Under the pieces are notes generated by a model. That model was given only the letters and a program-made list of their open reading frames with translations. It did not search any database and was not told the origin of the DNA. The position numbers and the translations under genes were made by a program. A stretch of 63,976 nt of DNA, the filler included, from Craspedostauros australis (Eukaryota), in assembly GCA_030167865.1 (NCBI GenBank). It is 12 parts of 12 records of this genome, joined end to end, with 100 filler letters (N's around TTAATTAATTAA, not from the genome) between each part and the next. Parts side by side here need not be neighbours in the genome. Positions count along the whole stretch, not along the records: positions 18,891 to 47,115 come from JALAGF010001112.1; 11 more parts are not named here. One strand, 5' to 3'. This document shows positions 601-62,822 of the stretch, piece by piece. Within the stretch, counting starts at the first letter, position 1, and each line of letters starts with the position of its first letter.

Positions 601-852
601 GTTGGTGACGGAACACGAAACCAAAACAAGGAACAACAACAACGACGCGCACAAACCTCGCCACAAACAAACAACAACGGCCAAATCGCCAAATCATCGA
701 CACCGCCACCACGCCGCGTCAACCCACAATTGCACCACAATCGAACTCGTGTGACTATTCGTTCTGATCCTCGCATCCTCCCACAACATCACCACATCTG
801 TTGCAAAGCGAGGTTGCAGACTGCAATAAAACACTTCATTCGTCAACATCCA

Positions 853-910
853 CACAAGCACAAGCACAAGCACAAGCACAAGCACAAGCACAAGCACAAG
901 CACAAGCACA
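853..910. repeat. (CACAAG)n hexamer microsatellite in the PCNA 5' region
   Basis: About 9-10 perfect copies are directly visible. Confidence 0.95.
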
Positions 911-961
911 CACCCACAAGCATATCCATACCCACCAGTCCCAACGAAGAAACGATCCACC

Positions 962-2005
962 ATGTTCGAGGCCACGCTGAATCAAGGACGCATCATGAAG
1001 CAGATCATCGATTCTGTGAAGGATCTGCTGACCGACTGCAACCTGGACATCACGGAGGAAGAGATCTCCATCCAGTGCATGGACTCTTCCCATGTCTCCC
1101 TCGTGGCTGTGCGTCTCTCCGCAGAGGCGTTCGATCACTACCGATGTGACCGCCCCAATGCGCTAGGCATCAGCACGGTCAACCTCGCCAAGATCTTCAA
1201 AATGATGAACAATGACGACAGACTGACGCTGAAGGCAGAGGACGAAGGTGACAGCCTCGCCATGGTCTTCGAAGGCCAGACCAACGACACGATCGCCGAT
1301 TTCGGTAAGTTATGACATATGTGCACCGTGGACTGTGCACATGTGTACCGTGTGCAGTGCGCTGTGTACCGTGTACCTTGCATGCAATAGATGAAACACC
1401 CGCCATCGCAATGCCCAGCTCTTGGATCACTTCGCATCATTTCAACTAGACTCGCTTCGCAATTACGTCCCTCACAACGATCAATTGCATTGCATGACGT
1501 TGCTGCATGCTCTGGTTGCACCTTGTGAAACCGTTTCCAAAAACGACCATCCAACCACGAAACGTTCGCAGAGCTCAAACTGATGGACATTGAGAATGAC
1601 CAGCTCGGCATTCCAGACACACCGTACAAGTGCACTGTCAAGATGCCAGCGAAGGAATTCGAGCGCATCGTGCGTGATCTGCAAGTCCTTGGAGAGACCT
1701 GCACCATCAGCTGCAGCAAGGAGGGGATTCGGTTCAGCGTCAGCGGCAACCTGGGAACAGGCAACATATTAACTCGGGCGAATGCCAACGCGGAAAAGGA
1801 GAAGGACCGCGTGATGATCGAGATGGAGGAGCCTGTGGAATTGAACTTCGCCTTGCGGTACCTGAACTTCTTCACGAAGGCGACCAACCTTTCCGACAGC
1901 GTCATCATCAGCATGAGCCCGGAGGTGCCCGTCGTGGTGGAGTACCCCATTGACGAGATCGGCCACGTCAAGTTCTTCTTGGCTCCAAAGATCGAAGAGG
2001 GATAA
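962..2005 (+). CDS. PCNA: Proliferating cell nuclear antigen, 2 exons (962-1304, 1572-2005), 258 aa
   Basis: Motifs MFEATL, QCMDSSHVSLV, YRCDR, FALRYLNFFTKATNLS and KFFLAPKIEE. The intron GTAAGT(1305)...TTCGCAG(1571) splices to restore the conserved DFELKLMDI. Confidence 0.97.
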
Positions 2006-2327
2006 GCTGGCGCATCTGCATCCATGCTCATGAACAATCGTACGACGACGGCTCACCACCACCAATGGCAAAGTCGAACAGCAGCACACAAGGGAAAGAA
2101 AAACAAAGGCAGTATGATCAGTATCATATCATGTTGGACGAGCACCATACAAGCACCATACAGGCATCACACCAGTAAGAATAGTATTGTCGTATTATGT
2201 TCATTCCAGAGCGATCTGACCGCATGGTACTGGAAGCATCTCGCTTTGTCCATTGGTTCATCGCAGGTTTCACGACTCTCCACTGCACTGCACTGCACTG
2301 CGCGGTAACGCGTCACCGCTGATTCCT

Positions 2328-3269
2328 TCAATCCGCTGAGATGGTGTGGTAGTCATCTCCAAGCCACTCCAGCTCTTCCTGGGTGAACGTCTCCTTCATC
2401 TTGCGCACCAACGCCTCTGCCTGATCATCGGACATGAGCTCCTTCCATCCGCCTATGCTCCCCTTGCGGATGAATGGCGCATGTCCCACCTTGCGCTCGC
2501 TGGACCATCGCAGTGGATCCTTCTTCATGCTCGACAGCGACGTGTGCTCCAGGATGTCTGTCATCAGCTTGCCGTCGTCAACATCCAGCATGGCTGGAAG
2601 AGTCGCGCTGTCCAAGAACTTCGCGATATCACGTACGACTGCCTCCTGGTCACGCCTCAGATCTTCGTACTTGACCACTAGGACGTTATCGTCGTCGCGG
2701 TGGGCCATCCATGCCTTCAAAAAGTCAAAGTAGCTTCCAAAGTCCACCTCACCCTTCAGGAAGAGGTCGAAGAACACATCGAATGAACCATCCGCGAAGT
2801 TGTAGTGCTTTTCGAAACCCCGCGTGTGATGGAAGAAAGATACAACGACGTCTTTGGGGTTCCGGGTCACGATGACGTACTTTGCTTTGGCGCTGAGCGG
2901 CGTCATGGAACGTGGGAGATGGGTTTTGATGAGGCGGAAAGGAGCCGGTGCTTTTCCGTTGCTGGCGGGGTTCTGGATGCATGGCAGATTGGTGACAAAG
3001 TCGGCGCCGACTTCTTCGAGATGCGGGAAGATGTGATCCAACCGTTCGTCAGGCTGGATTGGAACTCCTTCGTTGAGCATCACGTACACGATGTGCTGAG
3101 TCAACGTGGTGCCACTTTTGGCGTAGGTGGCGATGAAGAGATCCTCCGGTTGTGCTTCGTACGTCAGACCGCTGATGAACCCATCGACAGGGAATCCTTT
3201 TGGCATGAGGAGACCATCGTGGCTGGTGTAAGTCGGCTTCAGATCCTTGTTGTCACCGTCGCTCGTCAT
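2328..3269 (-). CDS. Cytosolic PAPS-dependent sulfotransferase (Sulfotransfer_1 family), 313 aa
   Basis: 5'-PSB TYAKSGTT, KTH, 3'-PB RNPKDVVVSFF, and C-terminal RKGSIGGWK are all intact. Confidence 0.93.
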   Translation of the reverse strand: MTSDGDNKDLKPTYTSHDGLLMPKGFPVDGFISGLTYEAQPEDLFIATYAKSGTTLTQHIVYVMLNEGVPIQPDERLDHIFPHLEEVGADFVTNLPCIQNPASNGKAPAPFRLIKTHLPRSMTPLSAKAKYVIVTRNPKDVVVSFFHHTRGFEKHYNFADGSFDVFFDLFLKGEVDFGSYFDFLKAWMAHRDDDNVLVVKYEDLRRDQEAVVRDIAKFLDSATLPAMLDVDDGKLMTDILEHTSLSSMKKDPLRWSSERKVGHAPFIRKGSIGGWKELMSDDQAEALVRKMKETFTQEELEWLGDDYHTISAD

Positions 3270-3356
3270 GTTGGGTCAGTGCTGTTGTCGCTCGGACTCC
3301 AGAGGACTTCTCGTGCTGTTGGTATTGCTCGTCGCGCTTGTGTTGTTTGTTTTGTT

Positions 3357-3417
3357 TGTATTGCCTGTATTGCCTGTATTGCCTGTATTGCCTGTATTGC
3401 CTGTATTGCCTGTATTG
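3357..3417. repeat. (TGTATTGCC)n 9-bp tandem repeat
   Basis: About 6.5 perfect copies upstream of the sulfotransferase. Confidence 0.95.
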
Positions 3418-4123
3418 TTGATATTGGTGTAGTAGCCGTTGTAGTTGGTGTCGATTGGATTGTACATCATGGGTGCGAGAACGAACACAAACACCAACAC
3501 AAGTCTGGATACTCTGCGAATGACGAAACGCTCAGTATCCGCGGAACCGCGCATTTGGACGGACAGAACAGTGGCACGTTTGGCCAAGTCCAAACAAGAG
3601 GCCAGAATTGCGATTGGGTGGCAAAAGATCGCTTTTTGGATTCGGCAGATCGGAATTTCGGGTTCGCGACCATGGAAGTGCGCGTTGCTTTGGGAGATCA
3701 TGGGTGGGACCAACGAAACGGCAAATGGCGAAGGAAGAGACAAGCATGTACGACTACGCAGCGAGCGGACCAAATGACAATCGCAACATCAACAACAACA
3801 ACATCAACAACATCATCATCATCGACAGCCTCGACGACATTGGTTGATGAAAGAGTCACCTCACACGTATTACATATAATATTATAGAATAGAATACTAT
3901 TCTATATTAGTACGACGAAGATCACCAGTGGCAAACGCAATGCTGCTGCAACCCCGAAAGAGCTACGCTACTGACACGAACACCGCGACACAGGAGCAAG
4001 AGCGCCAGGGACGGCAGCACACCTACCGCAACGCCTTTTCGAGGAGCCTGTCTTCCTTGTCTGCCGATTTGGAGTAGGAACGTATACGACTAATACCATA
4101 CTTCGAGTCCGAGCACCAGTTGT

Positions 4124-7100
4124 ATGCATGGAAGCTCGGATAACATTCGCAGACACCAGAACACAACCACCATGCCTCGTTCCCGGAGCAACACGGCGGA
4201 GAACCCTCTTGCCAATGCGTCCACAGCCGCGTCCATAGCTGCGTCGACAGCTGCTTCTACCGGCGCGGTGGCATCGAAGCCTGATCCGATAGTGAGCATC
4301 GGATTGGGCATGGGTGGCAGGATGATCGGGGCAAGCAACCACAAGTTGCAGAAGCAGTACTCCGGCGTGTCTTCCACGCCACCGCAAACTCTATCCAATC
4401 CAGGCTCCAGGCACAAACGCAAAGAGTCCAGTGCTATGCTCCTTGCGGCCGCGATGCCCAACATCGAAGGGCCTACCTCCACGACAAAGGCGCTCATGGT
4501 ATCTGTCATCTGCCCACGGCGCATTGGTCACACAGTGACGATCGAAGCCCCCGACGACCCTCCTCAGACTAGCATGGTCAATAGCGATCAGCCCACACCA
4601 GGTGCAGATGGTGCCAACGAAGCCCATGAGACAAATAAAGCAACGAAGCAGCCACCGCCACCGCCACCATCGCAACCTGCAGACTTGGCATTGGGATTGG
4701 AATTGGCAGCAACGGAATCGGTAACAGCAACAGCAACCAACCCAAAGCCGAAGTCCGAAGTCAAGGGAATTCTGAGAAAGTCCACCTACAGCGATGTTGG
4801 CATGGCGGATGCCGCAGCATCCATTCCCTCCGATGATCCCAACTCTGCAACGTCGGAACCTACTCGTACACTAACGGGAGCTGCTGCAGCAGCTGGAACG
4901 ACCGCAGATATGGACGATCAACCATCCGAAATCGTTCCTCTCAAGTTGGATGCCGCGAACCATGTCTCTTACAGATCCACCGACGCTACTTCTGCTGCTT
5001 TGGCCTCTTCGACGGCAGCTGCAAATATCTCTGTTGGAGCCGCAACCGACGCAGTCCCATTTCATGAACCTCAGACACCTCCAGCCATTGCACAACGCAA
5101 GACCATCGTCAAGGAGACCAGTCAAGATTCCATCACGATAACTTCCGAAACGGAAGCAACCCCACGCGTTGGAAACAAAACGAAGAAACAGGTGCTCGAT
5201 GTTGGCGACGATTCCACAGACCTCATGATGCCACCCTTGCCTGCCCCTGACCTTCAACTGCCATCCAACAATGTTGCGGCAATGACACGCATGAAGACCA
5301 TCATCGAAGCCACGCCCAATACTCTGCAAGCACCCGATGATCCAACCAACCTCAAGTCCCAACATGAACCCAGCACGCCCGTCCAATCTGACACTCTGCC
5401 AACTCAGCAGCAAACGGCTCTCAATCCACCAAATCAAACTGGTGGCGAACGTGGCAGCGACAGCAACGGCGAAGCAATATCCATTCAACCCCCATCAGCG
5501 CAAGAGGAAGAAACCAAATCAAACGCCAAGGTTTCTGTCAACGAAGAAGTCGAACAGATCCATTTCCCACCCTACAGTGATGATTTAGGCGGCATTGCCC
5601 ATAATGACCAAGGTCAAAACCAAACTCAAGGAAACGGAGAAGGAGAAGACGAAGACCAAGGCGACCTGGTGGGCAACAGCATTGAAGATCGCAAGGTCAC
5701 TCCCGAAGAGGCGGCCGCTGTCACGCCCGGCGAACACCCGGACGAGAACGAGATTAACATGGAAGAGCTGTTGCGCATCACCTTCGACACCCTCCTTCGA
5801 GAATGGCACTTGCTCAACGTCCCCACCGTCGCCTTCGTCGATCATCAGAAGCTCCCCACGGACCTGGTGAACCCATACACCTACAGCAGCGAGGATCAGC
5901 GACAAGACGAAGGCAATTGGATGTCCCTTCAGGTGATGGTCCGCAACAGCTCCCTCGGCATCGTTCTCGAACGATTGGAGCGTATCGGGGTTGGTATCAT
6001 GTGCGGCACGGTCTCCATATTCAAGATGGAGCTTTGCAAGACCGCTTCTCCTTACGCGCACATCAAGGAGCAAGATGAACAGCAGCTCCAGCAACAACGC
6101 GAAGCAGAAGACATGTCCACCATCGGCAGCCTCACGCAAGCTGACGACATGTCTCTCGGTGGTGTTTCCCTGAAGGTGGCGACCGACAAGGCCATCGATG
6201 AAGCTGAGGATCGTGAAAAGGCCGAGGAAGCCGAGCGGATCCGGAATGAACGCATGATCGAGGCGGCCAGATCCGAGTGGAAGAATGCCGCGACACGATT
6301 GCGCATCGAACAGGTGCGGGAACAGATCGTGGAGCAGGCAGCATTCTCCTTTGATTTCATCAGCCTTCTGACCATCGCCAGCATCCTGGCTGGAGTTGGA
6401 CTGATTACGGACAACACGGTGGTGATCGTTGCGAGTATGCTGGTGTCGCCGATCATGGGGCCGGTGCTGGGGTTGACCTTCGGAAGCCGGATCAAAGACT
6501 GGCCGCTTGTGAGGGCATCCTTGTTCAACGAATGCCTCGCCCTGCTGGGGTGCGTCGTGGTGGGTGCGCTGGTCGGTGCATCATCTGCCTTCACCAAACT
6601 GGCAGACGATGACTGGCCGACCAACGAAATGGAGATTCGAGGGGAGACGACCGGGTTGCTGACTGGTATCGCCATCGCCATTCCTTCCGGCATGGGAGTT
6701 TGCTTGGGTATTCTGGGTGGCAACACCAGCAGTCTCGTGGGCGTCGCCATCTCAGCCTCTCTGCTGCCGCCGGCAGTCAACTCCGGAATCTGCTGGGTCT
6801 ACGCCATCATGCTCGAAACTGGCGCAACCACGTCCAACAGCGGCAAAGATGCCAGAGACTTTGCCGAAATCGGCGCCATCTCATTCTCCTTGACGGTTCT
6901 CAACATTGTCTGTATTTGGGCTGCCGGGATCATCATGTTCGAAATCAAGGAGGTGGCACCGACCACGGAGAAGAGCCCGTTCTGGGCACGCGACCTCAAG
7001 ATCGCTCGGGAACTCAACGACAACACCCGCGGCGAAAAGCCGCCGCCCATCAACATGAGCAAGATCCGAGAAGGTCTGAAGACGGCCCTCCGCCGTCGCA

Positions 7101-10839: not shown

Positions 10840-10939
10840 NNNNNNNNNNNNNNNNNNNNNNNNNNNNNNNNNNNNNNNNNNNNTTAATTAATTAANNNNN
10901 NNNNNNNNNNNNNNNNNNNNNNNNNNNNNNNNNNNNNNN
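10840..10939. other. Artificial contig-joining spacer (N44-TTAATTAATTAA-N44); also at 12957, 15924, 17066, 18791, 47116, 48691, 51831, 55323, 58815 and 62723
   Basis: Eleven identical 100-nt blocks containing a six-frame stop linker. Confidence 0.97.
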
Positions 10940-12956: not shown

Positions 12957-13056
12957 NNNNNNNNNNNNNNNNNNNNNNNNNNNNNNNNNNNNNNNNNNNN
13001 TTAATTAATTAANNNNNNNNNNNNNNNNNNNNNNNNNNNNNNNNNNNNNNNNNNNN

Positions 13057-13135
13057 GTAGGAAAAAGCCGTAGAAATTTAACACGGAGGCTTTATAATGG
13101 ATCTGACAGATCCTTTATGGCTGGTCCATTAAGGG
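13057..13135 (+). mobile_element. Right terminus of a piggyBac-like element (related subfamily)
   Basis: gtaggaaaaagccgtagaaatttaacacgg ... ctggtccattaaGGG|ATAG, homologous to the ends at 240 and 34628. The contig begins inside the element. Confidence 0.65.
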
Positions 13136-14333
13136 ATAGTTACAAAGTTAAATTTTTCGCATTAGCCTTTGCCTAGACGCGTCAAGCGTGCGGACGGAAA
13201 AGAGCAAATGTGGTTGGGAATCGTCAGTCGTGTTTCGACATGCTGACCAGTCGTGTCTATCATCGACACACTCACATTTGACGGGGTGAGGCGGCTACTT
13301 GTGACGAAAGGTTGAGGATTGCGTGGTGGCAGTGGGCATGCCGAGGCTGCTGCTTTGTCTGGGCTTTGGATAAATGGAACCCATGTGGAGAAGAATGCAT
13401 ATAATGGTGAGAGGGTTGCAGGCTCCATGCTACCCACAGGGGGTACACCCCAATTCAACCTTTGCTCTCTCCCTTAGCTTGACCTGCATCATGCCTTGTG
13501 CTCGGTCTGCCGCTGTTCATGATTCAGGACATTCAGCTTCGTCCACATCTCAATCAGCACATGCTGCCTTCCCTTCATATGCCTATTCTATACTACAGCC
13601 TCGTCCTTGCTTCGGGTCTATTCCCTGCCTGTGTGTTTGGACCTCCTCTCTGCTCATCGTCGCCAATGGCCATCATTGGCTTCTGCCTGTTGCTCATCTG
13701 CTCCCCCTCTTTACTTCTTGTTTTGGTTGTATTGAATCCGCAAGCACTTGAATCACGATGCAAGAAACAACAAGGATAACAGCACTACTGTCACCAGTCT
13801 CTTTCTGCACCATGTCAACAGCTCAGCAGATGATCATGGTNTCCCATGTCNAAGGGGAACAAAGCAGATTGCACAGGACTTTGTAGAATATTCACAAACT
13901 AGCCAAGTATTATTTAGTATTGTATTTTGTTGTGCATAGCAAAGGATAAGTCACTGCGCTCTATTACATTACATAATATCATGTTGTGTAGCATTCGCAC
14001 GTGTGGATATTGTGGCCGATATGTAGGGATGACACCACCAATGCTTTGCTGCTTGACACAACACTGGCAGTAGGAAACACACAAAGGAGCCAAATCACCA
14101 ACAGCGTGAGCAACCGACATGACACCGGACCTGTCACAACATCACCATCCACACCATTGAATACAGCTTCGGTCTGTCATCGACCGTCATTGACGTCATG
14201 TGTTTTGTCCGCGTTGAGGACAAGCCAGCCAGTATTGGTGTCGTAGACATATAGCTAAATATGTCTAACCCTAGTTGACAACACGGTACATCGCCATCTA
14301 ATAAAGTAGTGTTTTCCTATTATTTACCTTCAG

Positions 14334-15923: not shown

Positions 15924-16023
15924 NNNNNNNNNNNNNNNNNNNNNNNNNNNNNNNNNNNNNNNNNNNNTTAATTAATTAANNNNNNNNNNNNNNNNNNNNN
16001 NNNNNNNNNNNNNNNNNNNNNNN

Positions 16024-17065: not shown

Positions 17066-17165
17066 NNNNNNNNNNNNNNNNNNNNNNNNNNNNNNNNNNN
17101 NNNNNNNNNTTAATTAATTAANNNNNNNNNNNNNNNNNNNNNNNNNNNNNNNNNNNNNNNNNNNN

Positions 17166-18790: not shown

Positions 18791-18890
18791 NNNNNNNNNN
18801 NNNNNNNNNNNNNNNNNNNNNNNNNNNNNNNNNNTTAATTAATTAANNNNNNNNNNNNNNNNNNNNNNNNNNNNNNNNNNNNNNNNNNNN

Positions 18891-33836: not shown

Positions 33837-33928
33837 TCAACGGTGCCATGCCATGCAAGTACAGAGTGGTGGACACACAGTATTGTGCAAAGCGAGTAAC
33901 TATGATCTCGGAGCATGTAATCTATTAT

Positions 33929-34628
33929 CCCTTCATGACCTAGACGATATAATATATCGTTTTCAGTTTCAGTTGTTTTTATTTTTGACGATAACATCTA
34001 CATGTGCAATACCATTTTCTTTGCATTTTTAGAAAGCTGTTGAGCACAGCTTTCCAATGATTATGTTTAAGTTTTATGTTTCTTACTGCCATCTTATCAC
34101 TAATCAAGCCTGAAGTACCCGTGAATTAATTTTGGACTGCGGGACTGGAGTGAAATTGCTCAGTGACACGCGGATTGTGGGCGACACACATCCGGAGGCT
34201 ATCGTATCCAAGAACGAAGAGAGGGATGAGCAGAACTCAACCATCTTTGGGTGAGGAAAGGTTCATGGGCATGTATGAAGACCACAGACAGGTAATCGAC
34301 GAGGACGGAACGCAACGACGTTGCCGATAGTGCTGCTACTTGAAGGCCACAAACAAAAATACTGGCGTAGACAGAAGCACTCCAAAGAGGTTCAAACAGA
34401 TCTGCACCTTATGCAGATTCCATATCTGCAAAGAACATTGGGGTATCTACCATGGAAGATGTTGAAGTAGGCTACAACATAATTTCGGTGGCTTCCAACG
34501 ATAGCGCTAGTAAACGATGGTACAGATTTAGTCTTCACGTAGGCCGTGGTAGGAAAAACGCGTTCAAAATTTAACACGGTGTCGAGATAAACGACATACT
34601 GGTGCACTTATCTCTGGGTCATGAAGGG
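33929..34628 (+). mobile_element. Complete 700-bp non-autonomous piggyBac-like element (MITE)
   Basis: TIRs CCCTTCATGACCTAGA (33929-33944) and TCTGGGTCATGAAGGG (34613-34628) match at 15/16. Flanked by AT on both sides. It shares the subterminal motif with 1-240, is relatively AT-rich, and lies between convergent genes. Confidence 0.85.
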
Positions 34629-34650
34629 ATAGAACCTTCTCCCATCACGC

Positions 34651-36384
34651 CTACTTCCATATCCGTTTCCAATTGGAGTGGCCAATCGGCGAATCCAGCT
34701 TATGCTCCTTGAGAACCTTGAGCAACCGATCGTTGTACGTCCGAAAGAACCGCTCCAACATGATGCGCGTCGCGTCCGACATTACATGATTCGAGTGTTT
34801 TTGATACCGCACGCGATGGAGCCGCAGATGCGCCGCCGGCAATCCCATGAATGGGAGAAGCCGATCCAGAATCGACGCATAGTCGACATCGAGAATCTCG
34901 GTCGGCAGCACGAACAAGGATTGCGTGATGTTCTTGCCGACGCGCGTGTAGGCGTCGATCCAGTGTTGCAAAGGAATGACGTAGAGGGAGACGCCGATGG
35001 CCGGTTCCTGAAAAGTCTTGTCTTGGTCGATCAATTGCAGGTACGATTTCCACGCGGCGTACTCGTTGTCGGGTTGCGTCGGCACGAGCGCGTCGGTTCC
35101 GGATCGTTCGATGAGGCCGGCTCGGATCATGAGATCGAATTCGATCGCGATCCAATCCTCGAAGGACTTTTCCAAACGGAAGTTATCGACGTAGTAGGCC
35201 CACTGCGCGTAGAGGCGGTCGACAGGATTGCGCATCATGAGCACGAGCTTGCTCCACGGCGTCGTGCACAGGATATTGTAGGGCACCAGATGCGACGCCG
35301 TGAAGTAGTTGGCCGATCCGTCCATGGCGATGCTGTGCGTGTCGGGCAACGTCGTCGCCAATCGGTTGTAGTTGGCGCCCGAATTGTACATGGCCTCGCG
35401 GGCTAAGTAGACTTTGCGCTTTTGGATCATATCGTCGCGGTCGGCATCGAGGCGCAGTGGTGGGAGGTAGCGATTGAATTTGTTGGGTAGGTAAAATTTG
35501 AGGTTCTTGGTTTTGGTGGCGTTGGCGTTGATGTTGGGGTGCTTCGCTAACGTGTAGTAGAGCGTGGCGGATCCGCTCTGCTGCGTACCAATGATGATGA
35601 CACCCGGCGCCCGCTGCTTCCAGGCCGACTTGTCGCTGGAGGGATACCAGCCATAATCTTTGTCGGTGGGCGTTTTGGGTTGGAAGTTGCAATACTGCTC
35701 CAGGAAACTGGACTCCGTTGCGGTGAAGCCCTCGTTGTTTATTCTGCCCTGGGAATAGGAGACCGACGTCGCAGGTGAAATGGCCGGCAGCTTGATCGAT
35801 TGCGTTGGCGTCGGCTTGGCCTTTGGTGTTTTGGGCCTGGGCGTCGGCCTGGAGGTTGGTTGGATGTTGCTGGAAGTTGGATGTTGATTGGATTTGGGAG
35901 CTTTGGTCGGAGCCGCCGTCGGTGTCTGCGTTTGCGGCACGGCCGCGTCATGCGTCGGCTTCTGCGTCGGGTAGTGCTCCTGCGGAGATACCGTCCTGGT
36001 CCCCACCTGGACATGATCGTTTGGCAGATGCATCTTGTGCTCCACATCCTCGGGCGTTGTCGCATCGAGAATGCCGGACTTGATGATGACGAGAGATAGC
36101 ATGCACGTGAGGATGCAGCCGGCCAGAACGTATCGTCGCCTCTGCATCGTGGAGGGTCTCTTCCGGTTGGAGCTGGCGCTCGTCTCAATCTCGATCTCGA
36201 GGCCGCTGTAGATGCGGGTGTTCGCGTTGTGACTGCTGGCGCTGTGGTTGCTGCTGATGCTGTCGTTGCGTTGCGTGCGGCTGGTTCGCCGACCAACGAG
36301 GCTGCCGGATCTGCTTTCGGCGTTGCTGCTGCTGCTTCTCTTGAGGTTGCTGAAAGGAATGGGCGCTGGTGGCCTCCCAGGCAT
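34651..36384 (-). CDS. Type II membrane (Golgi-type) heparan-sulfate-sulfotransferase-like protein, 577 aa
   Basis: N-terminal TM YVLAGCILTCMLSLVII, a P/T-rich stem, then PGVIIIGTQQSGSATLY..L..HPNI, DGSANYF, KLVLMMRNPVDR and LERFFRTYNDRL. Confidence 0.85.
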   Translation of the reverse strand: MPGRPPAPIPFSNLKRSSSSNAESRSGSLVGRRTSRTQRNDSISSNHSASSHNANTRIYSGLEIEIETSASSNRKRPSTMQRRRYVLAGCILTCMLSLVIIKSGILDATTPEDVEHKMHLPNDHVQVGTRTVSPQEHYPTQKPTHDAAVPQTQTPTAAPTKAPKSNQHPTSSNIQPTSRPTPRPKTPKAKPTPTQSIKLPAISPATSVSYSQGRINNEGFTATESSFLEQYCNFQPKTPTDKDYGWYPSSDKSAWKQRAPGVIIIGTQQSGSATLYYTLAKHPNINANATKTKNLKFYLPNKFNRYLPPLRLDADRDDMIQKRKVYLAREAMYNSGANYNRLATTLPDTHSIAMDGSANYFTASHLVPYNILCTTPWSKLVLMMRNPVDRLYAQWAYYVDNFRLEKSFEDWIAIEFDLMIRAGLIERSGTDALVPTQPDNEYAAWKSYLQLIDQDKTFQEPAIGVSLYVIPLQHWIDAYTRVGKNITQSLFVLPTEILDVDYASILDRLLPFMGLPAAHLRLHRVRYQKHSNHVMSDATRIMLERFFRTYNDRLLKVLKEHKLDSPIGHSNWKRIWK

Positions 36385-37184
36385 CGTGCGGCTAGCGATG
36401 GCAGATGGGCACTTCGCTTGTTGCGCAGGCTATCGATTGAGTGGATGCCCAGCTCTGTCTCTCTCTCTCTTTCTCTCTGTCTCTGTCTCTGTCTGTCTCT
36501 GTCTCTGTGTGTCTATCTGCCTCTCTCAATCGCCTCCTTCTCTTGCTCTCTCTCTTCTCCTCTTGCCCCAGTTATGCGATGAGGTTCGTCAAGGATGCCG
36601 CCGCCGTTCAAGCGCAACTTGCGCCATTGTCGACAACAGGAAGAGGCAAACAGCGATGCGTTGTGTTGTTGTCGTTTCTCAGTCACAGGCATCGAGTCAC
36701 GACGGTCATTCAGCGATTATGGTCGTTGGAGTCGACTTCAGAGAGGTCCTGTTTCGTGAGTCGTGGTATGTGAACTTGGTGGAACATCCAATGTCGTGAA
36801 TCGTGAGAACGGATCAACTTCTCGGAGTTTGTGAGAACTTCGCGCCAGAGGTGTATCGCAGTCACCGGCGCAGACGTCCCAAAGCGCCACAACATCCGAT
36901 GAACTCATCAACCAAGGCGCCTCTCCATCTTGGCAGATGCTCCTTCCTTCTTCCATGTGATCCTCTCTTGTTCTTGTTTGACCAAGCTCTGCCATCGTCG
37001 TGGTAATAGCCATACCACACAGACGCTTGATCACATTGCGTTGGAGTTGATTCGAGTTCATCTGGAGTGTCGATAACCATCTCACCATAAAACGAAAGCA
37101 GAGACGCAACGCAAGACAGAACACAACACATCGCACAACACAGAACACAACACAGAACACAACACAGCACGCAACACAGAACAA

Positions 37185-37697: not shown

Positions 37698-38309
37698 TGC
37701 GTGAATGCGACTATTATACGGCGCAAGCGTCATACCTGAGGAGATATGTGGAATACACGCGACGAGAACTTGGACCAATTAATAGAGAACGAGCAAAAAG
37801 ATACTGAGCAAACTGCAACACACACTCTCTCTCTCTCTCTCTGGAGATAGATAGATTCCTGTTATTGTTCACAATGAACTGTGGATACCACTATCCACGC
37901 AACGCAAGATGCGGTTGCTGTCCGTTTGAAATGTGAAGAATACAACACAAGATGGACTGAAGTCTACTCCATCGACTTGTCTGTCAGTCTGTCTGCGTGA
38001 TACGTATGGTTTCCGTCTCAATAGATTTTGGCGCCATTTGCGAATGGAAAAAGAATGCGCCTCAACAACAACACACGCGAACTCGTGCGCAACAACAGAA
38101 TCATGACAGCCATGGTCCACAATCAAGCGTTTGACGTCCCACCAAGGTGCTCGACATGTCACGAAGATCTTGACTGTTGCTCACAAAAGTATTGCACAAG
38201 TAGTATAATCATATTACAGTACTCCATTTGGACAAGAGGACAGATATACCTGCTGTTGCACCAGTAAATCACCGCACATATTATCCCAACAAACAAAAGC
38301 AGATGGATC

Positions 38310-46926: not shown

Positions 46927-47321
46927 TTTCACAATAGCCCAGCCACGATGGGCACATTCCACAAAGCCATCAACGGGGAACGATGTGGACGTCACTGAAT
47001 GACGAATCAGAACACTAATACTTATCGTCAACTTGGCGTGACATGCCTTTGATAATCCTCTGTCGTCGCGTTGTTGCGCGGGATTTGCTCTTGCTCTTTC
47101 TGTCGTCCAATCGGCNNNNNNNNNNNNNNNNNNNNNNNNNNNNNNNNNNNNNNNNNNNNTTAATTAATTAANNNNNNNNNNNNNNNNNNNNNNNNNNNNN
47201 NNNNNNNNNNNNNNNTGTGTGTGTGTCTTGGTTGGTGCTCATTTGTTGCCCATTGTGCGCTTTTCACTGCCTGGTGTGTTGTTGAGCGAGCATCCTCTTG
47301 CAACATGAACTTGGTTGGGGC

Positions 47322-48690
47322 TCATGCATGCACTGTTGATGCAAGTCCATCCTCAGAGACAGCAGCTGAATGAACTCCTGTTGTGACAGATCTTGGAACA
47401 CCATCCATTCGTTGGTGTACAGAATCGTTTCGGCTCAGCACATTGTCATTCTCGCGACGATGGACAAACCCAGCAGTGGGGGCTTGTGGCATGTCCGAGA
47501 TTGAGAAGGTGGTGTTGTCAATGTTGGTTGCTGCTGCGCGCTGCTGCTCCACCATGCNNNNNNNNNNNNNNNNNNNNNNNNNNNNNNNNNNNNNNNNNNN
47601 NNNNNNNNNNNNNNNNNNNNNNNNNNNNNNNNNNNNNNNNNNNNNNNNNNNNNNNNNNNNNNNNNNNNNNNNNNNNNNNNNNNNNNNNNNNNNNNNNNNN
47701 NNNNNNGCTCGGGCTTCCTGCTCTGGCTGGCGACGACGGTCCTCCTCCTGTTGTGCACGAGCCTCTGCTGCTTGGCTGCGTGCTGCCTCCTCCTCGTTCT
47801 TGTGGCGCCCAGTAGAGCGCAGCGTGAAGTTTGCAGCTCCTGGCATGTTGCCAAAATGGCTTGCTGCTCCTTGCTGTCCCCAACCAAACCCTTGTTGATG
47901 TGGCTGAGTTGGGGTTGCAAATGGCTGTGTGCCAAACCCAGCAGGCAGGAATCCATGCCTGTTGGCAGCNNNNNNNNNNNNNNNNNNNNNNNNNNNNNNN
48001 NNNNNNNNNNNNNNNNNNNNNNNNNNNNNNNNNNNNNNNNNNNNNNNNNNNNNNNNNNNNNNNNNNNNNNNNNNNNNNNNNNNNNNNNNNNNNNNNNNNN
48101 NNNNNNNNNNTGAGATGGTGTGACCAAGCGGAATCGCCGCCTTCTGCTGCAGCTCAAAACAGAACGCCGCGATGGTGAACGACCCAAGACCGTTGTAGAT
48201 GATGTGGTACTGTGCAGGCATCGGCATCTTCATCACAGCATGCCAGAAGTTGTTGTCCATCTGGAAGTCAACACTTACCCTGCGCGTGACTGCAGGTTCA
48301 CCGTTCTCATCGGCTTGCGATTGTGCCATCGAGCGAAGCGCTTCTTGTCCCTGACGAAGGCCAACGGAAAATTGAGGACGATCCGTGAATGGCCCGTAGA
48401 TGCTGCTTGCGGAGTAATAAGTTGCTGGTAGCTTGTACGCCAATTTAATGCTCCACCCGTCATCCTTGCTGGAGAAGCGACTAGATTCTGGGTTGACGAG
48501 CGGTTCGAGCACAAAGAAGATGTGGACTCCATGATGGTTGTGGATCAGAATGCCTCCCAACACTGGATCCAGCGCATTCTCTTGGAATGATCCTTGCTTG
48601 ACCATTTTGGCACTCGAAGTTGTCACAATTTCCTCGTTTCCTTTCACATGGTTGATGTTGAGGCTGCGCATTGCTTCTTCAATGTTGTTG
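47322..48690 (-). CDS. Uncharacterised ORF in a repeated/collapsed contig (probably transposon-associated), with two internal N gaps
   Basis: The frame is open across the contig and its 3' end is duplicated at 18891. Confidence 0.5.
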
Positions 48691-49259
48691 NNNNNNNNNN
48701 NNNNNNNNNNNNNNNNNNNNNNNNNNNNNNNNNNTTAATTAATTAANNNNNNNNNNNNNNNNNNNNNNNNNNNNNNNNNNNNNNNNNNNNCTTCGACAGT
48801 GAATCGGGTTCTCCACTATTCTCCCGTGCGTGCCCACTGTGACGAAGTAGACAAAAATACATAGGCACATCCATACACACAGCGCGCTGCTCATCGCGCA
48901 CTCCTACCTTCGTCAGACTCAACTGAAAGGCAATGCGTTACTTTGCACCATACTATAATCGTCCAGGGTATCCATGTTGGTGCCTGCTTCCTGCTCGTGT
49001 CATCCTTGTCGTCTCCTCATGCTTCATCATGCAGATCCTGCTAGTTGCTGCTCCCTTGCTCTCCCCTCTGCTCCTACTCACATTCGCACGCACGGTTGCG
49101 CCAATGCCCTTGCCTGTGGTCCAATAGTTGTCTGCATACTCTTGCAATTCATCCTACTTCATTTTCTCCATCCAATTCATCAGAAAGCCACGTGCAAAGT
49201 GACTGTTCCACTGGCCTCTGTTGGAAATCCAGGGTATTGATACTGTAGTCTAATCCTTA

Positions 49260-51830: not shown

Positions 51831-51930
51831 NNNNNNNNNNNNNNNNNNNNNNNNNNNNNNNNNNNNNNNNNNNNTTAATTAATTAANNNNNNNNNNNNNN
51901 NNNNNNNNNNNNNNNNNNNNNNNNNNNNNN

Positions 51931-54900
51931 AAGATCAACCCTGGCAAGGTGTTTCGCGAGACAACCGCCAACAATGTGACGGTCGCCAAGCAGGCGTACA
52001 AACGCCCCCTACAGTCCCTATCTGAGTGGGTAGACTATGTCATGCGCCGAACACCGGAAGCCAGCGTGGCAACATCGGCAAGCGGTACGTCTGAAGGAAG
52101 AGACGTGTCATCTGATCGTCCACGAGGAGGATCTGCCGCTGGCACACCACCGATACCGCTCCCAACCAGTGGACTTCCCATGTCCGAGCTCACCGTACCC
52201 ATCAAGGAAGGCACAGCGAAGGCGCGAACAAAGGTCACTTTCCAACCACGTGTACCACCAACAGATGCACACCATCCTGCCACAATGGCAGCAAGTGGGC
52301 AGACATCGGTCGACACGGCACAGGCTGACAGCCTCAGCCGCACCACCGAGCACAAACGAGTGAAGCGACCTAACACGTTCCCCGAGCGGTACAAGCTGGG
52401 TGACACCATGCGTTTCACCGAGTTCCGACGTGACATGGAATTCTTCCTGTCGCCATACGGCATGGGGTACCTCATGAACACGGAGTTCGCCACACTCTAC
52501 GCGATGCACGGGAAGCGCGTACTCGAGATGTACGTGGACGACCACTACGAGTCGCACCTCCCATTCGATTCCGTTCAGCTCAAGTCCGATGTCAGCCTGT
52601 TCGCGCGGTTTCTCCGTGAGGCCATCAGCAACACCAGCATGTCGTACCTACTCCGTGGCCCACAGGGCACTGATGGTGTACACATCTGGCAGCAACTGGT
52701 GTTGGAATGCGACAACGTCCAACAACGNCGTGAACGTGCCGCGCTGTTGAAGGCCAGGCTTACACAACGACTCCGTGCCAACGACGACCTCGTAAAATAC
52801 ATCGACGAGTTCCGTGACAATGTGCTTGCATACAACGATGCTGCAGCACGAGAACGCGACCGCTACGACGACACAACCATGTGCGAGATGATGTCACAGC
52901 AAGTGATTGATTCTGGGAATGCGCAGTACATCAACTGGATGCATCTGGTGCGGTCCGGCCGCAAGCACCTCTCCTTCCCAGATTTCTGTCACAAGCTGCA
53001 ACATTATGCGCGTGAGGTCGAGACATCGCGACGACTGCATCACCAACGCCGTGCACGTCCACGTGATCGCGCCGTCGCCAGCGCCCGTACACAAGGAGGG
53101 CAACCGCCTGCATCCTCGACGCCGTACGATGAGGCCTCCGACGACGCTCGGTACATTGCGGTGGAACTCCAGTGCGGCATCGCCAATGCTGAGGCTCTGG
53201 TCTACTCTGCCCAGCCACACGTCGAGACTGCCAACAACGACCCGGACTACATTGACAGTGCCACATTCTCCAAGCTGCCGCAGCAGGTGCGCAAGGTGAT
53301 CCGACGTCTCCGCGAGCGTGCTCGAGGGTACCGCCGCAACCGTGGCAACCGGCGTGACCAGGTCCCTGAACGACCGGCAGCCGCGGATCCCGGGGGGGTT
53401 CATTCGCCTCCAACGCTAGGCACACCAGCCAACGCAACAGCAACAGCCCACAACGCGACAATCCCCATGCAGTACAACGTCAACAGGACGCACAGCTACC
53501 GTGAACGCATGGACAGTGGAAGTACCACAGACAGGGGCGACAACACAGATGGATACAGCAACGAGGACAGCTCATGGTCAGAAGCGACTGATGAAGACTA
53601 CGATGTGATGGACAGTGCCAACCGAATCAGGAATATGCGCATGTACATGGCACAAATGCACCACACGGATGCCGAACTGGAGCCAACCGAGAGCAGAGAA
53701 CACAACCCCACAACGGAATCGATGTACATCGACCTACAAGCCAACGCAACAACCACGGAGGGCGAGTCGTATGCTATATGCGATAGCGGTGCTCAATGCT
53801 CCATCCTGGGAAGTCTTGGTGATGTATGGCAGGTGGAGACCGTGCATATGGGGCGCGTCATCAACGTCATTGGCGCAATACCATCGACAATGAAGAAGAA
53901 TGGACTTCGTGTGGTGTCAGCATGGACGAAGGCAACCCTCGATGATGGCCAGAAGGTCATACTCAAGGCGCACGAGTGCGCACTCAACCCCATGAGTCGA
54001 GTCACATTACTGTCCGAGTACCAGCTCAGGTCTAATGGATGCGTGGTCGACTCTGTATCAAAGAAACACTACAGGTCTCTTGAGCCACCAAAGAAGGGCA
54101 CACAATCATTCATCCCAGCAAAAGGGGCACGCATCGCACTCCAGGCACGAGATGGCTTGATGGCGTTCGACATCGAACCGCCAACACACGAAGACCTCCA
54201 GCAACTCCCCATCTATGAGATCACCAAAGATGAACCATGGAACCCACATGTGGCTGAGGATTCCAAAGATGACATGCAACCATTCCTGAATCAAGTGGCA
54301 TCCATGAAGCATCCAACCGAAGGCGGAACAGAAGTGACCACCACGACATTCGAGGGCCTGGACCACCCGGTTCTGTCCGTGAACACAAGCATGCTTGAAC
54401 AGGATGACAGCATGGAGTATGATGGAGAAGACGAGGCAACTGACTGTGTGGAGCTTGATCCGGTTGATCAATTCCTCAACTCACTGGAGTACGATGGGCT
54501 CGTTGGGCAGGACATGCCGTTCGCGTTCAACCCAGCAGTGTATGCTGCACACGTATCGCGCACAGTGAGAGGCGGAGGCGCACTACGCGAACTGGTGGAG
54601 GATATGGTGCCGACTGGCGGACAAGAGACATGGGAAGACATGGAGGCGTTTCGGGTGCACAACAAAGAGTTGTGGCACATCCACCCACCAGGTGCCACCG
54701 ATGACGAAGACACCACCGTACCCACCGCCAACGTCTACAAGAAGGGTGATGCACATGGCGATGACGTCTCTGCATACGATGATCTCTCTGACGCGATGCA
54801 CAAGATGCACCAACAGCGCATCGACAACAACAACGAACCCGCCGCTACCCATGCGCACGATGTCGGTTTCCGGGTGCGGGCACGTCACAAGGTGGACAAT

Positions 54901-55322
54901 CCAGAGAAGATCCGACCTTACCTTGGATGGCGCAACCTACGCATCGTGAAGGAGACAATCAAGCGCACAACGCAGGACTGCAAGGCGGTGGTTCGGTGGC
55001 CCATGGTTCGGCATCTGCGATCCCGTTTTGCATGGATGCGACGGCCAAGAATCAAAGAGGTGGTGGCAACAGACACTTTCTTCGCAAATGTGCCGTCGTT
55101 TGGCGAGAACTACACATGTGCCCAGGTGTTTTTCGGCACTGCATCACATGTGATCAACATCGTTGGACTACGCACGAAGCAAATGGTCCATGATGCCATC
55201 AACCTGTTCATCCGTGAGGAAGGCGCACCATGGGCGTTTCGCATGGACAACGCTGGTGAGCAGGTTGGTGAGCAGGTCGACCGGATCCTTCGCGAGCTAC
55301 ACATTGGTGTTGAACTCACGGA
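51931..55322 (+). mobile_element. CoDi-like Ty1/Copia gag-protease-integrase polyprotein fragment (copy 1)
   Basis: Gag DGVHIWQQL, protease AICDSGAQCSILG, TLLSEYQLR, integrase ATDTFF...CAQVF...RMDNAGEQ. Integrase follows protease directly (Copia order). Confidence 0.88.
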
Positions 55323-55422
55323 NNNNNNNNNNNNNNNNNNNNNNNNNNNNNNNNNNNNNNNNNNNNTTAATTAATTAANNNNNNNNNNNNNNNNNNNNNN
55401 NNNNNNNNNNNNNNNNNNNNNN

Positions 55423-58400
55423 AAGATCAACCCTGGCAAGGTGTTTCGCGAGACAACCGCCAACAATGTGACGGTCGCCAAGCAGGCGTACAAACGCCCC
55501 CTACAGTCCCTATCTGAGTGGGTAGACTATGTCATGCGCCGAACACCGGAAGCCAGCGTGGCAACATCGGCAAGCGGTACGTCTGAAGGAAGAGACGTGT
55601 CATCTGATCGTCCACGAGGAGGATCTGCCGCTGGCACACCACCGATACCGCTCCCAACCAGTGGACTTCCCATGTCCGAGCTCACCGTACCCATCAAGGA
55701 AGGCACAGCGAAGGCGCGAACAAAGGTCACTTTCCAACCACGTGTACCACCAACAGATGCACACCATCCTGCCACAATGGCAGCAAGTGGGCAGACATCG
55801 GTCGACACGGCACAGGCTGACAGCCTCAGCCGCACCACCGAGCACAAACGAGTGAAGCGACCTAACACGTTCCCCGAGCGGTACAAGCTGGGTGACACCA
55901 TGCGTTTCACCGAGTTCCGACGTGACATGGAATTCTTCCTGTCGCCATACGGCATGGGGTACCTCATGAACACGGAGTTCGCCACACTCTACGCGATGCA
56001 CGGGAAGCGCGTACTCGAGATGTACGTGGACGACCACTACGAGTCGCACCTCCCATTCGATTCCGTTCAGCTCAAGTCCGATGTCAGCCTGTTCGCGCGG
56101 TTTCTCCGTGAGGCCATCAGCAACACCAGCATGTCGTACCTACTCCGTGGCCCACAGGGCACTGATGGTGTACACATCTGGCAGCAACTGGTGTTGGAAT
56201 GCGACAACGTCCAACAACGCCGTGAACGTGCCGCGCTGTTGAAGGCCAGGCTTACACAACGACTCCGTGCCAACGACGACCTCGTAAACTACATCGACGA
56301 GTTCCGTGACAATGTGCTTGCATACAACGATGCTGCGGCGCGAGAACGCGACCGCTACGACGACACAACCATGTGCGAGATGATGTCACAGCAGGTGATT
56401 GATTCTGGGAATGCGCAGTACATCAACTGGATGCATCTGGTGCGGTCCGGCCGCAAGCACCTCTCCTTCCCAGATTTCTGTCACAAGCTGCAACATTATG
56501 CGCGTGAGGTCGAGACATCGCGACGACTGCATCACCAACGCCGTGCACGTCCACGTGATCGCGCCGTCGCCAGCGCCCGTACACAAGGAGGGCAACCGCC
56601 TGCATCCTCGACGCCGTACGATGAGGCCTCCGACGACGCTCGGTACATTGCGGTGGAACTCCAGTGCGGCATCGCCAATGCTGAGGCTCTGGTCTACTCT
56701 GCCCAGCCACACGTCGAGACTGCCAACAACGACCCGGACTACATTGACAGTGCCACATTCTCCAAGCTGCCGCAGCAGGTGCGCAAGGTGATCCGACGTC
56801 TCCGCGAGCGTGCTCGAGGGTACCGCCGCAACCGTGGCAACCGGCGTGACCAGGTCCCTGAACGACCGGCAGCCGCGGATCCCGGGGGGGTTCATTCGCC
56901 TCCAACGCTAGGCACACCAGCCAACGCAACAGCAACAGCCCACAACGCGACAATCCCCATGCAGTACAACGTCAACAGGACGCACAGCTACCGTGAACGC
57001 ATGGACAGTGGAAGTACCACAGACAGGGGCGACAACACAGATGGATACAGCAACGAGGACAGCTCATGGTCAGAAGCGACTGATGAAGACTACGATGTGA
57101 TGGACAGTGCCAACCGAATCAGGAATATGCGCATGTACATGGCACAAATGCACCACACGGATGCCGAACTGGAGCCAACCGAGAGCAGAGAACACAACCC
57201 CACAACGGAATCGATGTACATCGACCTACAAGCCAACGCAACAACCACGGAGGGCGAGTCGTATGCTATATGCGATAGCGGTGCTCAATGCTCCATCCTG
57301 GGAAGTCTTGGTGATGTATGGCAGGTGGAGACCGTGCATATGGGGCGCGTCATCAACGTCATTGGCGCAATACCATCGACAATGAAGAAGAATGGACTTC
57401 GTGTGGTGTCAGCATGGACGAAGGCAACCCTCGATGATGGCCAGAAGGTCATACTCAAGGCGCACGAGTGCGCACTCAACCCCATGAGTCGAGTCACATT
57501 ACTGTCCGAGTACCAGCTCAGGTCTAATGGATGCGTGGTCGACTCTGTATCAAAGAAACACTACAGGTCTCTTGAGCCACCAAAGAAGGGCACACAATCA
57601 TTCATCCCAGCAAAAGGGGCACGCATCGCACTCCAGGCACGAGATGGCTTGATGGCGTTCGACATCGAACCGCCAACACACGAAGACCTCCAGCAACTCC
57701 CCATCTATGAGATCACCAAAGATGAACCATGGAACCCACATGTGGCTGAGGATTCCAAAGATGACATGCAACCATTCCTGAATCAAGTGGCATCCATGAA
57801 GCATCCAACCGAAGGCGGAACAGAAGTGACCACCACGACATTCGAGGGCCTGGACCACCCGGTTCTGTCCGTGAACACAAGCATGCTTGAACAGGATGAC
57901 AGCATGGAGTATGATGGAGAAGACGAGGCAACTGACTGTGTGGAGCTTGATCCGGTTGATCAATTCCTCAACTCACTGGAGTACGATGGGCTCGTTGGGC
58001 AGGACATGCCGTTCGCGTTCAACCCAGCAGTGTATGCTGCACACGTATCGCGCACAGTGAGAGGCGGAGGCGCACTACGCGAACTGGTGGAGGATATGGT
58101 GCCGACTGGCGGACAAGAGACATGGGAAGACATGGAGGCGTTTCGGGTGCACAACAAAGAGTTGTGGCACATCCACCCACCAGGTGCCACCGATGACGAA
58201 GACACCACCGTACCCACCGCCAACGTCTACAAGAAGGGTGATGCACATGGCGATGACGTCTCTGCATACGATGATCTCTCTGACGCGATGCACAAGATGC
58301 ACCAACAGCGCATCGACAACAACAACGAACCCGCCGCTACCCATGCGCACGATGTCGGTTTCCGGGTGCGGGCACGTCACAAGGTGGACAATCCAGAGAA

Positions 58401-58814
58401 GATCCGACCTTACCTTGGATGGCGCAACCTACGCATCGTGAAGGAGACAATCAAGCGCACAACGCAGGACTGCAAGGCGGTGGTTCGGTGGCCCATGGTT
58501 CGGCATCTGCGATCCCGTTTTGCATGGATGCGACGGCCAAGAATCAAAGAGGTGGTGGCAACAGACACTTTCTTCGCAAATGTGCCGTCGTTTGGCGAGA
58601 ACTACACATGTGCCCAGGTGTTTTTCGGCACTGCATCACATGTGATCAACATCGTTGGACTACGCACGAAGCAAATGGTCCATGATGCCATCAACCTGTT
58701 CATCCGTGAGGAAGGCGCACCATGGGCGTTTCGCATGGACAACGCTGGTGAGCAGGTTGGTGAGCAGGTCGACCGGATCCTTCGCGAGCTACACATTGGT
58801 GTTGAACTCACGGA
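55423..58814 (+). mobile_element. Same CoDi-like fragment (copy 2, near-identical)
   Basis: Same first and last nucleotides as copy 1. I found only 4 substitutions and one N difference. Confidence 0.88.
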
Positions 58815-59705
58815 NNNNNNNNNNNNNNNNNNNNNNNNNNNNNNNNNNNNNNNNNNNNTTAATTAATTAANNNNNNNNNNNNNNNNNNNNNNNNNNNNNN
58901 NNNNNNNNNNNNNNTTGTTTTGTATGATGGTTGTTGAGGTATGGTGCTTATGAGGAGAGCTTCTGCGATGGCAGAGTCGTTGACGAAGGCAATTGCTAAC
59001 GTTGTTGTCGTCATCGGCGATGTGTGGAGGAGGAGTCTCTCTGCCGATCAGAAGTTTCTCATGGATGATTTGCTTTGGGCTCAAGAGCAATCCTGTTTGT
59101 TTCGTTGTCGTCGTTGTTTACGGGCACACGTGATCGTACTCTCTGCCTTGTTTGGTTGTGGATGTGGATGCAAGGGTCTCGTGTCCATCCAAGGCTGATC
59201 GGTGTGCCTGTGTCTCTGGTGATGTGTTGCTGACGATGATGGCATTCCTGGTCGTTCGTCCCTTCTCTCTCGAAGAGTGCAAACTGTTGTGCATTGCTGC
59301 TTCGCGTGTTGCGTTGTGTTGTGATGGATGACGAGGTCTGTCGTGTCAAGGGTTCTCGTTCTTCTTTGTTTTGTTTCGCCTGAACGGTATCTTTCTGCGT
59401 TCTGTCCAATTCAGTATCTTTCTTTTCTTGTGCAATCGGTCTTCGATCGAATCATGGAACCATCAAAATCTATTGAGTCGATCTAGTCGTACGTGAATGA
59501 CGCCGTGGCTGCGAGAACATCGACTTTGTGGAGTGACTGCGCAGACGCATCAGGGGCGTCATCCACATTGCGTGCACGGTGGTGGCAACGAACACTCTGT
59601 TGTCACCATCCCCGTCATACCTGTCATCCTCACTGCATCAAAGAAGCGAAGCAGCAGCAGCAATGAGAGTGGGAGGGGAGTGGGAACCACCAACCAATAC
59701 GGAAG

Positions 59706-62231: not shown

Positions 62232-62822
62232 CCTTTTCTTGTTGTCGCTGTCGTCACTGTTGTTGCTTCGGTTACGGCTGATGCCGATTGTTGCTGATTA
62301 TTGTTGATTGTTGCTGATTGCTGCTGTTGGCGATACAATCATGCGAGTAGAGCTGGTAGAGCAGGCAGAGTATGTAGTCCCAAATTAGTTGCTCTCTTCC
62401 ATTTCATGATCCTGTGCATTCATCACGAAGCAACGTGCCGTCAGTCAACACGCCTGCATGGACTTGCGCAGTTCCACCATGGTGTATGGTATGGTATGGT
62501 ATGGCATGGAACGACCGTGGACAGCCACATCATGATCTGAAGCTGGCTAGCTCGCTCGCTCGCTCGCACGATACGACGTTCGATCGCGCCCAACTTGGCC
62601 ACGCTGTGCAGTTGTGCCTCTTCATGTGATACCATAGTTCGTGTAATATGAATAGACACATCCCTCTGTGATGGTCTTGGGGGAGTCAACCAGTATGCCA
62701 TACGAATGCATACTATGTACTTNNNNNNNNNNNNNNNNNNNNNNNNNNNNNNNNNNNNNNNNNNNNTTAATTAATTAANNNNNNNNNNNNNNNNNNNNNN
62801 NNNNNNNNNNNNNNNNNNNNNN

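Follow-up and report, generated by a model that had tools for sequence, protein, structure and literature searches.

Targeting of TTAA, together with the 4-bp duplication of this sequence, is the trait taken to define piggyBac transposons; it is described as universal for the superfamily in the literature searched, and has been built into the pipelines used to mine such elements. In the available portion of the cryo-EM work (PMC7351741), TTAA recognition, a 4-nt hairpin and seamless excision are tied to one active-site geometry. The DNA is nicked at GGG-3', attack on the opposite strand at 4 nt within the flanking DNA then creates a hairpin, and this hairpin is reopened to give a TTAA overhang. 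Integration at TTAA follows, its 4-bp offset being, according to the authors, mandated by active-site spacing. Non-TTAA sites make up ~2% of canonical piggyBac insertions, mostly as one-base variants (PMC3499692). An analysis of 157 elements (Bouallegue 2017) gives, in its accessible part, C/CCC...GGG as the superfamily norm for termini, while treating odd flanks as mutated TTAA in unique copies. In the Paramecium system, as described in the sections available (PMC3408717), the piggyBac-family enzyme PiggyMac excises IESs bounded by a 2-bp A/T palindrome instead of TTAA, although this enzyme is domesticated and non-mobile, and generates 4-nt overhangs centred on TA that need processing by NHEJ. 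For diatoms, Maumus 2009 mentions only an element "weakly related to piggyBac". The literature searched, with Repbase and Dfam being outside its scope, yielded no piggyBac lineage described as using a 2-bp or TATA target, and ATAT-type variants, which a preliminary description of this locus had taken as established, proved to be loosely backed there.

The locus described here lies within a window, meaning the whole 63,976-nucleotide stretch of Craspedostauros australis DNA that was analysed, filler included. Direct reading of the window identifies a 700-bp element at 33929-34628 (+), starting with CCC and ending with GGG, the caret in the junctions below marking such element boundaries. Its terminal inverted repeats (TIRs) are 16 nt long, with the left copy, CCCTTCATGACCTAGA (33929-33944, +), carrying the terminal CCCTTNA motif common to its relatives, and the right copy (34613-34628, +) matching it at 15/16 positions. 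The inverted repeat continues outward across TAT on the left (33926-33928) and ATA on the right (34629-34631), extending it to 19 nt at 95% identity. The junctions read ...atctat TAT^CCC and GGG^ATA gaacc, such that the adjoining 4-mers are TTAT and ATAG; TTAA is absent from these flanks, as is any 3- or 4-bp direct repeat, whatever the register. The preliminary description, which had reported 16-bp CCC...GGG repeats with neither TTAA nor a shared 4-mer beside them, therefore stands on this point. The only matching flank pairs are AT with AT, if the element ends in CCC, or TA with TA, if it ends in TCCC, and as TAT and ATA are palindromic, this single copy cannot discriminate between the two. 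Under the reading favoured below, position 33926 would be the outer T of the target, 33927-33928 and 34629-34630 the left and right copies of a duplicated AT, and 34631 the outer A.

Between these ends lies a decayed remnant of a transposase C-terminus (34154-34465, +), comprising an apparent Cys-rich, zinc-finger-type domain interrupted by an in-frame TAG at 34328-34330 and closed by a stop at 34463-34465. Further downstream is the conserved subterminal motif AATTTAACACGG (34568-34579, +), 44 nt ahead of AAGGG. The element is a dead, MITE-like and internally deleted derivative, which could be mobilised only by transposase from a full-length family member, for example that with its right end at position 240 of the window. 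It is positioned between the convergent 3' ends of genes for an MFS transporter and a sulfotransferase-like protein. The latter gene (34654-36429, -), the 3' end of which is 23 bp from the right junction of the element, is one of two with a sulfotransferase domain in the window; the PF00685 match is weak for this gene, and 2e-52 for the other (2331-3275, -).

Two other ends of the family are present in the window, both of which had been recognised in the preliminary description, and both of which are genuine. The first is the 3' end of a second, probably coding, member (1-240, +), which retains the last 23 transposase codons (2-70), a stop (71-73) and the subterminal motif (180-191); its terminal GGG (238-240) is followed by ATAA, with the flanking ATA at 241-243, and lies 167 nt past the stop of the ORF, which ends in MCNICDVYICKQHWATYHGQDQG. 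The second is the right end of a third member (13057-13135, +) that has an assembly gap on its left, and in which GGG (13133-13135) is followed by ATAG, making 13136 the first flank base and 13136-13138 the flanking ATA. Both right ends are related to that of the 700-bp element, but diverged from it, and the latter is indeed the only two-sided copy within the window. The motif AATTTAACACGG occurs in all three right ends, each time exactly 44 nt before AAGGG, with these three matches comparing to an expectation of 0.2, and a count of three being reached in 0/100 shuffles; the motif may be a binding site for the transposase. The string AAGGGATA was found five times in the window, relative to 0.69 expected, with four of these occurrences being termini, and the fifth (37371) falling inside a coding ORF. 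The junction and flank at 238-251 (GGG followed by ATAATATGTGC) also recur, as an exact inverted match of 14 nt, at 38274-38287, where they read ...TAT^CCC and immediately precede an 858-aa ORF. This was considered as a relic of the family and set aside, as with an E value of 0.16 it is probably due to chance.

The assembly of the window has some features of its own. It consists of small contigs in series, each join being a pair of 44-N runs separated by 12 bases; these joins are at 10840-10939, 12957-13056, 15924-16023, 17066-17165, 18791-18890, 47116-47215, 48691-48790, 51831-51930, 55323-55422, 58815-58914 and 62723-62822. The one join examined contains the artificial six-frame stop linker TTAATTAATTAA, and the TTAA strings in these linkers are assembly artefacts, unrelated to transposon targets. 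The opening 342 bp of one contig (18891-19232) recur exactly, in reverse complement, as the opening 342 bp of the next (47216-47557), which is probably an unmerged assembly overlap. Additionally, the contigs at 51931-55322 and 55423-58814 are 99.85% identical over 3392 bp, and are redundant contigs or haplotigs; hence a second haplotype of the insertion site may also be present elsewhere in the assembly.

The affiliation of the family to piggyBac was established through the relatives of the remnant. Read in frame 1 of 34154-34465, with X at the TAG, this translates as ...RRCRXCC...ICTLCRFHICKEHWGIYHGRC followed by a stop, and the resulting 103-aa query was used in a HMMER search of 1.84 billion representative proteins. 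At E<=1e-3, 53 proteins matched, the best with an E value of 2e-13, and each match was at the C-terminus of its target. Twelve of these proteins were scanned for domains, and PF13843 (DDE_Tnp_1_7), the RNase H-like DDD catalytic domain of piggyBac-type transposases, was detected in all ten long ones (E values from 9e-53 to 3e-7), with no domain found in the two fragments of ~100 aa. When a profile of seven full-length relatives was compared with solved structures, only piggyBat (9c0f, 3e-23) and T. ni piggyBac (6x67, 3e-13) were recovered, with the DE, DNY and GVDxxDQ motifs aligned in both. The relationship to these transposases, distant by these E values, extends to an apparent C-terminal Cys-rich domain ending C..C...C...HF/W..YH, short CCC...GGG TIRs, subterminal repeats and a palindromic target composed solely of A and T. 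The remnant, the protein P0001 and all seven aligned relatives display the Cys/His pattern, while the Pfam zinc-finger model, PF13842, had no match on the remnant and scored 19.5 bits on the protein P0036, below the 24-bit cut-off.

Within the window itself, Pfam searches of the remnant and of the 23-aa ORF end matched nothing, and scans of 24 large ORFs detected no transposase domain, such that no catalytic domain was found in the window; the one coding copy runs off position 1, and membership of PF13843 is shown via the relatives. Where these carry a source name, it is that of a diatom: Cylindrotheca closterium, Amphora coffeaeformis or Nitzschia inconspicua. A Hsp70-like protein encoded in the window likewise has a diatom cluster as its nearest match. 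The piggyBac-type identity proposed in the preliminary description has thus been borne out, and, on the basis of sequence comparison, the 700-bp element belongs to a diatom-borne lineage within the piggyBac superfamily, of which it is a non-autonomous copy with an internal deletion.

The generality of the junction was assessed using DNA around the transposase relatives, taken from metagenome contigs and comprising 55 loci; no relatives were found among the viral contigs and prokaryote genome contigs. Termini were located without reference to their flanks, by means of CCCTTNA upstream of the ORF and TNAAGGG downstream of it. The upstream motif matched 16 times, preceded by TAT in 12 cases, AAT in one and other sequences in three, which were judged not to be termini; the downstream motif matched 22 times, followed by ATA in 19 cases and by ATG, ATC and GTT in one each, the last of these being a subterminal repeat. 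Hence four matches were left out by judgement: L011:184 and L026:635, as a true end with matching subterminal structure exists elsewhere in the same locus; L021:1507, which has no partner end in a locus without convincing TIRs; and L045:1471, one of several serial subterminal repeats, which is located 24 nt inward of the terminal copy. An array at 1190-1500 of L045 consists of ~10 short GC-rich subterminal repeats (..CGAGGGG..) just inside the right end, which may be multiple binding sites for the transposase.

Among the accepted ends of relatives, TAT precedes CCC at 12/13 left ends, and ATA follows GGG at 19/21 right ends. Together with the four window termini, these 34 ends from metagenome loci give 38, in which T at position -1 and A at position -2 are invariant (38/38 each), and position -3 is T in 35/38, whereas position -4 is variable (T in 14, C in 12, A in 7 and G in 5). 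Hence collecting the flanks, as the preliminary description had suggested, revealed AT at every end, with the outer T or A at 35 of the 38 only, making these outer bases a preference and no rule. The outer Y...R of the YTATAR target it had proposed is weak, as the pyrimidine at -4 (26/38, relative to ~56% in the flank background) is not a significant excess. All 38 ends also begin CCCTT, although this motif served to find 34 of them. A cruder count, over both strands of all the loci, was in agreement, giving 42 occurrences of [GC]NTNAAGGG, of which 25 were followed by ATA, and each other triplet followed at most two. GGG^AT(A) additionally occurs at ends with other penultimate motifs in L006, L009, L023, L025, L031, L038, L039 and L044, which were left uncounted because the search for them presupposed the flank.

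No TTAA^CCC...GGG^TTAA pair was present in the 55 metagenome loci, and none of the 38 termini adjoins TTAA. Nine elements are two-sided, these being the window copy and those in L002, L004, L014, L018, L020, L028, L029 and L047, of which the one in L028 is a composite, made up of two coding elements arranged one after the other; all nine lack a 3- or 4-bp direct repeat, either beside CCC and GGG or beyond TAT and ATA. The junction is kept across families with transposases that are just 30-50% identical, as well as in 98-99% identical copies at different insertion sites (L004, L005 and L018), and is therefore not a decayed TTAA. Hence, whereas canonical piggyBac is flanked as TTAA^CCC...GGG^TTAA, these elements are flanked as N-T-A-T^CCC...GGG^A-T-A-N, without a 4-bp duplication and most likely with one of 2 bp, AT. 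The non-TTAA junction belongs to the whole diatom-borne clade, in which AT is invariant; these transposons lack one feature regarded as defining piggyBac, while displaying others, namely the PF13843 catalytic domain in the relatives and the CCC...GGG ends. The preliminary description had inferred such a family from the window alone, and the survey supports it. The flanks TTAT, ATAG and ATAA, listed among the non-TTAA sequences in the accessible part of Bouallegue 2017, are exactly the 4-mers that this junction produces.

Some of the loci had unusual arrangements. In L028, a tandem pair of transposase-coding elements occupies 88-7073, one with its ORF at 232-3291 and the other at 3668-6688. The right end of the former is missing its final ~9 nt, and directly meets, at 3478, the left end of the latter (TAT^CCC), an arrangement that may have arisen through aberrant or one-ended transposition. 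Three 98-99% identical copies (L025 1817, L031 1676 and L038 1097) share ATATATAT after GGG before diverging, and each finishes in a small, perfect 18-nt palindrome (CCCTTCG..CGAAGGG), with TTAA before it. The shared ATATATAT would reflect a marked preference for (TA)n or, alternatively, an end that is longer in that family, and it counts as a point against the reading favoured below. Several insertions are located in (TA)n tracts, and these, the three copies included, are compatible with a preference for TATA.

The reading that best accommodates these observations is that the window element is a dead copy from a diatom clade of the piggyBac superfamily that integrates without TTAA, most likely duplicating 2 bp, AT, within TATA, to which we assign a probability of roughly 0.68. 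The AT register, the 2-bp stagger and the hairpin chemistry are what we infer beyond the junctions themselves. Under this model, the target would be T-AT-A, and the transposase would join both GGG-3' ends to it at positions staggered by 2 bp, duplicating the central AT to give N-T-AT^CCC...GGG^AT-A-N, while the outer T and A would be preferred or recognised without being duplicated. If the chemistry parallels that of piggyBac, excision would proceed via a 2-nt AT hairpin or overhang, instead of the 4-nt TTAA; as AT is its own complement, seamless excision would still be possible, the TATA of the unoccupied L023 site described below being the one hint of it. Given that the 4-bp offset of piggyBac is regarded as set by the spacing of the active sites, an offset of 2 bp would need a different geometry.

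The strongest rival, which we regard as unlikely, is that the ends are TCCC...GGGA, and that a plain TA is duplicated. A piggyBac-type enzyme would then use a target like that of Tc1/mariner transposons, sharing with them a 2-bp palindromic A/T duplication. Where eukaryotic DDE transposons have a 2-bp target, this is most often TA, and the 35 consensus termini fit TA as well as AT, owing to the palindromic TAT and ATA. This reading recalls the TA-bounded IESs of PiggyMac, and the available sections on that system show a domesticated piggyBac transposase cutting TA-centred sites (PMC3408717); the elements here are nevertheless transposons with their own TIRs, in which a 4-bp duplication is excluded in every register. 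The resemblance to Tc1/mariner does not extend to the enzyme, as the relatives carry PF13843 rather than a DD34E/DD34D transposase, or to the ends, which are CCC...GGG, and the evidence favours AT within TATA over the TA register. As CCC ends are the superfamily norm, duplication of TA has to add an extra T before an otherwise universal terminus.

Three further lines of evidence, all indirect, bear on the choice between AT and TA. Firstly, the three deviant ends among the 38 (AAT^CCC in L007, GGG^ATC in L005 and GGG^ATG in L002) all differ at the outer base, with no deviation at an inner one. Duplication of TA would put half of such deviations at the inner base, and therefore the outer-only pattern, which has a probability of ~1/8 under that model, favours AT. 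Secondly, L002 combines an intact 621-aa ORF with well-defined ends, at which the subterminal palindromes match, and is flanked by TAT and ATG. AT is the same on both of its sides, whereas TA would have to be paired with TG, despite the intact ORF; hence L002 favours AT.

Thirdly, the models predict different empty sites: the left and right flanks would be separated by TATA if AT is duplicated, by TA if TA is duplicated with TCCC ends, and by nothing if there is no duplication. The right junction of L032 reads GGG^ATAagccgtacac..., and L023 contains a 137-nt stretch that is 90% identical to this right flank, starting at the same ATA. This stretch is preceded by unrelated sequence ending ...gctct T, and so the unoccupied site reads TATA, exactly as expected if AT is duplicated. 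The TA model would require a chance TA directly before the target TA, expected in about 1 in 11-16 cases. The comparison is one-sided, as the L032 contig starts inside the element and its left end is missing. Shortly to the left of the TATA in L023 is TACTTAGG, resembling the L032 end TACTTAAGG; this likeness is taken as coincidence, rated at a 1-2% chance, whereas true homology here would make L023 doubtful as a clean empty site. BLAST of flanks of at least 40 nt, and comparison of 11-mers from short flanks with the loci and the window, identified no filled and empty pair besides L023 and L032, and all-against-all BLAST of the loci found no usable nested insertions. Reading frames across the joined flanks of the seven two-sided metagenome elements examined were uninformative because these flanks look non-coding. 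Hence the AT duplication put forward in the preliminary description is favoured over TA, with the choice of register depending on one one-sided empty site and three deviant ends; as no two-sided pair was obtained, AT within T-AT-A is held as probable, and not more firmly.

A second rival, considerably less plausible than duplication of TA, is that TAT and ATA are the outermost bases of the TIRs (TATCCC...GGGATA), inserted without any target duplication. The inverted repeat does run through these nearly invariant bases, and eukaryotic DNA transposons without target site duplications exist, Spy being an example in the part of its description available (PMC4122938). However, the unoccupied site in L023 already has ATA, and indeed TATA, without an element, for which the chance under this model is ~1/64 to 1/256. 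The preliminary description had recognised that its proposal would fall if these bases were simply part of the TIR, and the retention of TATA at this homologous site argues that they are not. Furthermore, the outer base varies at 3/38 ends, whereas the inner two never do, and no target pattern exists beyond TAT and ATA.

The weakest rival, that these are ordinary TTAA-duplicating copies with decayed flanks, or with boundaries misread owing to the TTAA just inside CCC at the 31/38 ends that read CCCTTAA, can be dismissed as extremely improbable, for although the accessible part of Bouallegue 2017 ascribes odd flanks to mutation, AT adjoins 38/38 ends, including those of young copies that are 98-99% identical at different sites, neither GGG^TTAA nor TTAA^CCC is paired in the loci, and the inner motif is inverted between the two ends (the window copy has TTCA at its left end, but TGAA at its right), and is therefore part of the TIR rather than a duplication. 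Other candidate targets were also rejected: a 4-bp duplication in a shifted or asymmetric register fails in 9/9 two-sided elements; ATAT would require an A at position -4, where it is found in only 7/38; and the inner TTAA of CCCTTAA, being inverted and not direct, is not the true duplication.

Duplication of AT within TATA would, if true, imply a 2-nt hairpin or overhang and a differently spaced transpososome, with seamless excision possibly kept. Slightly more tentative than our reading of the window element, but still rather probable, is the broader proposition that a diatom-borne clade of active piggyBac-type transposons integrates at TATA with a 2-bp stagger, duplicating only the central AT. 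A clade with such junctions would be filtered out by the 2025 survey, which, in its available part, kept only elements with a TTAACC-like motif (PMC13461360). In diatom genomes, both elements and MITEs could instead be annotated using the rule TAT^CCCTTAA...TTAAGGG^ATA. Intact members, such as that in L002 with its 621-aa ORF and both ends, would then be natural non-TTAA piggyBac enzymes, and the clade would offer starting points for piggyBac tools free of the TTAA limit. A natural lineage on a different, shorter target would test the link between target, hairpin and excision drawn from the cryo-EM structures, and would show the evolution of stagger length within one transposase fold.
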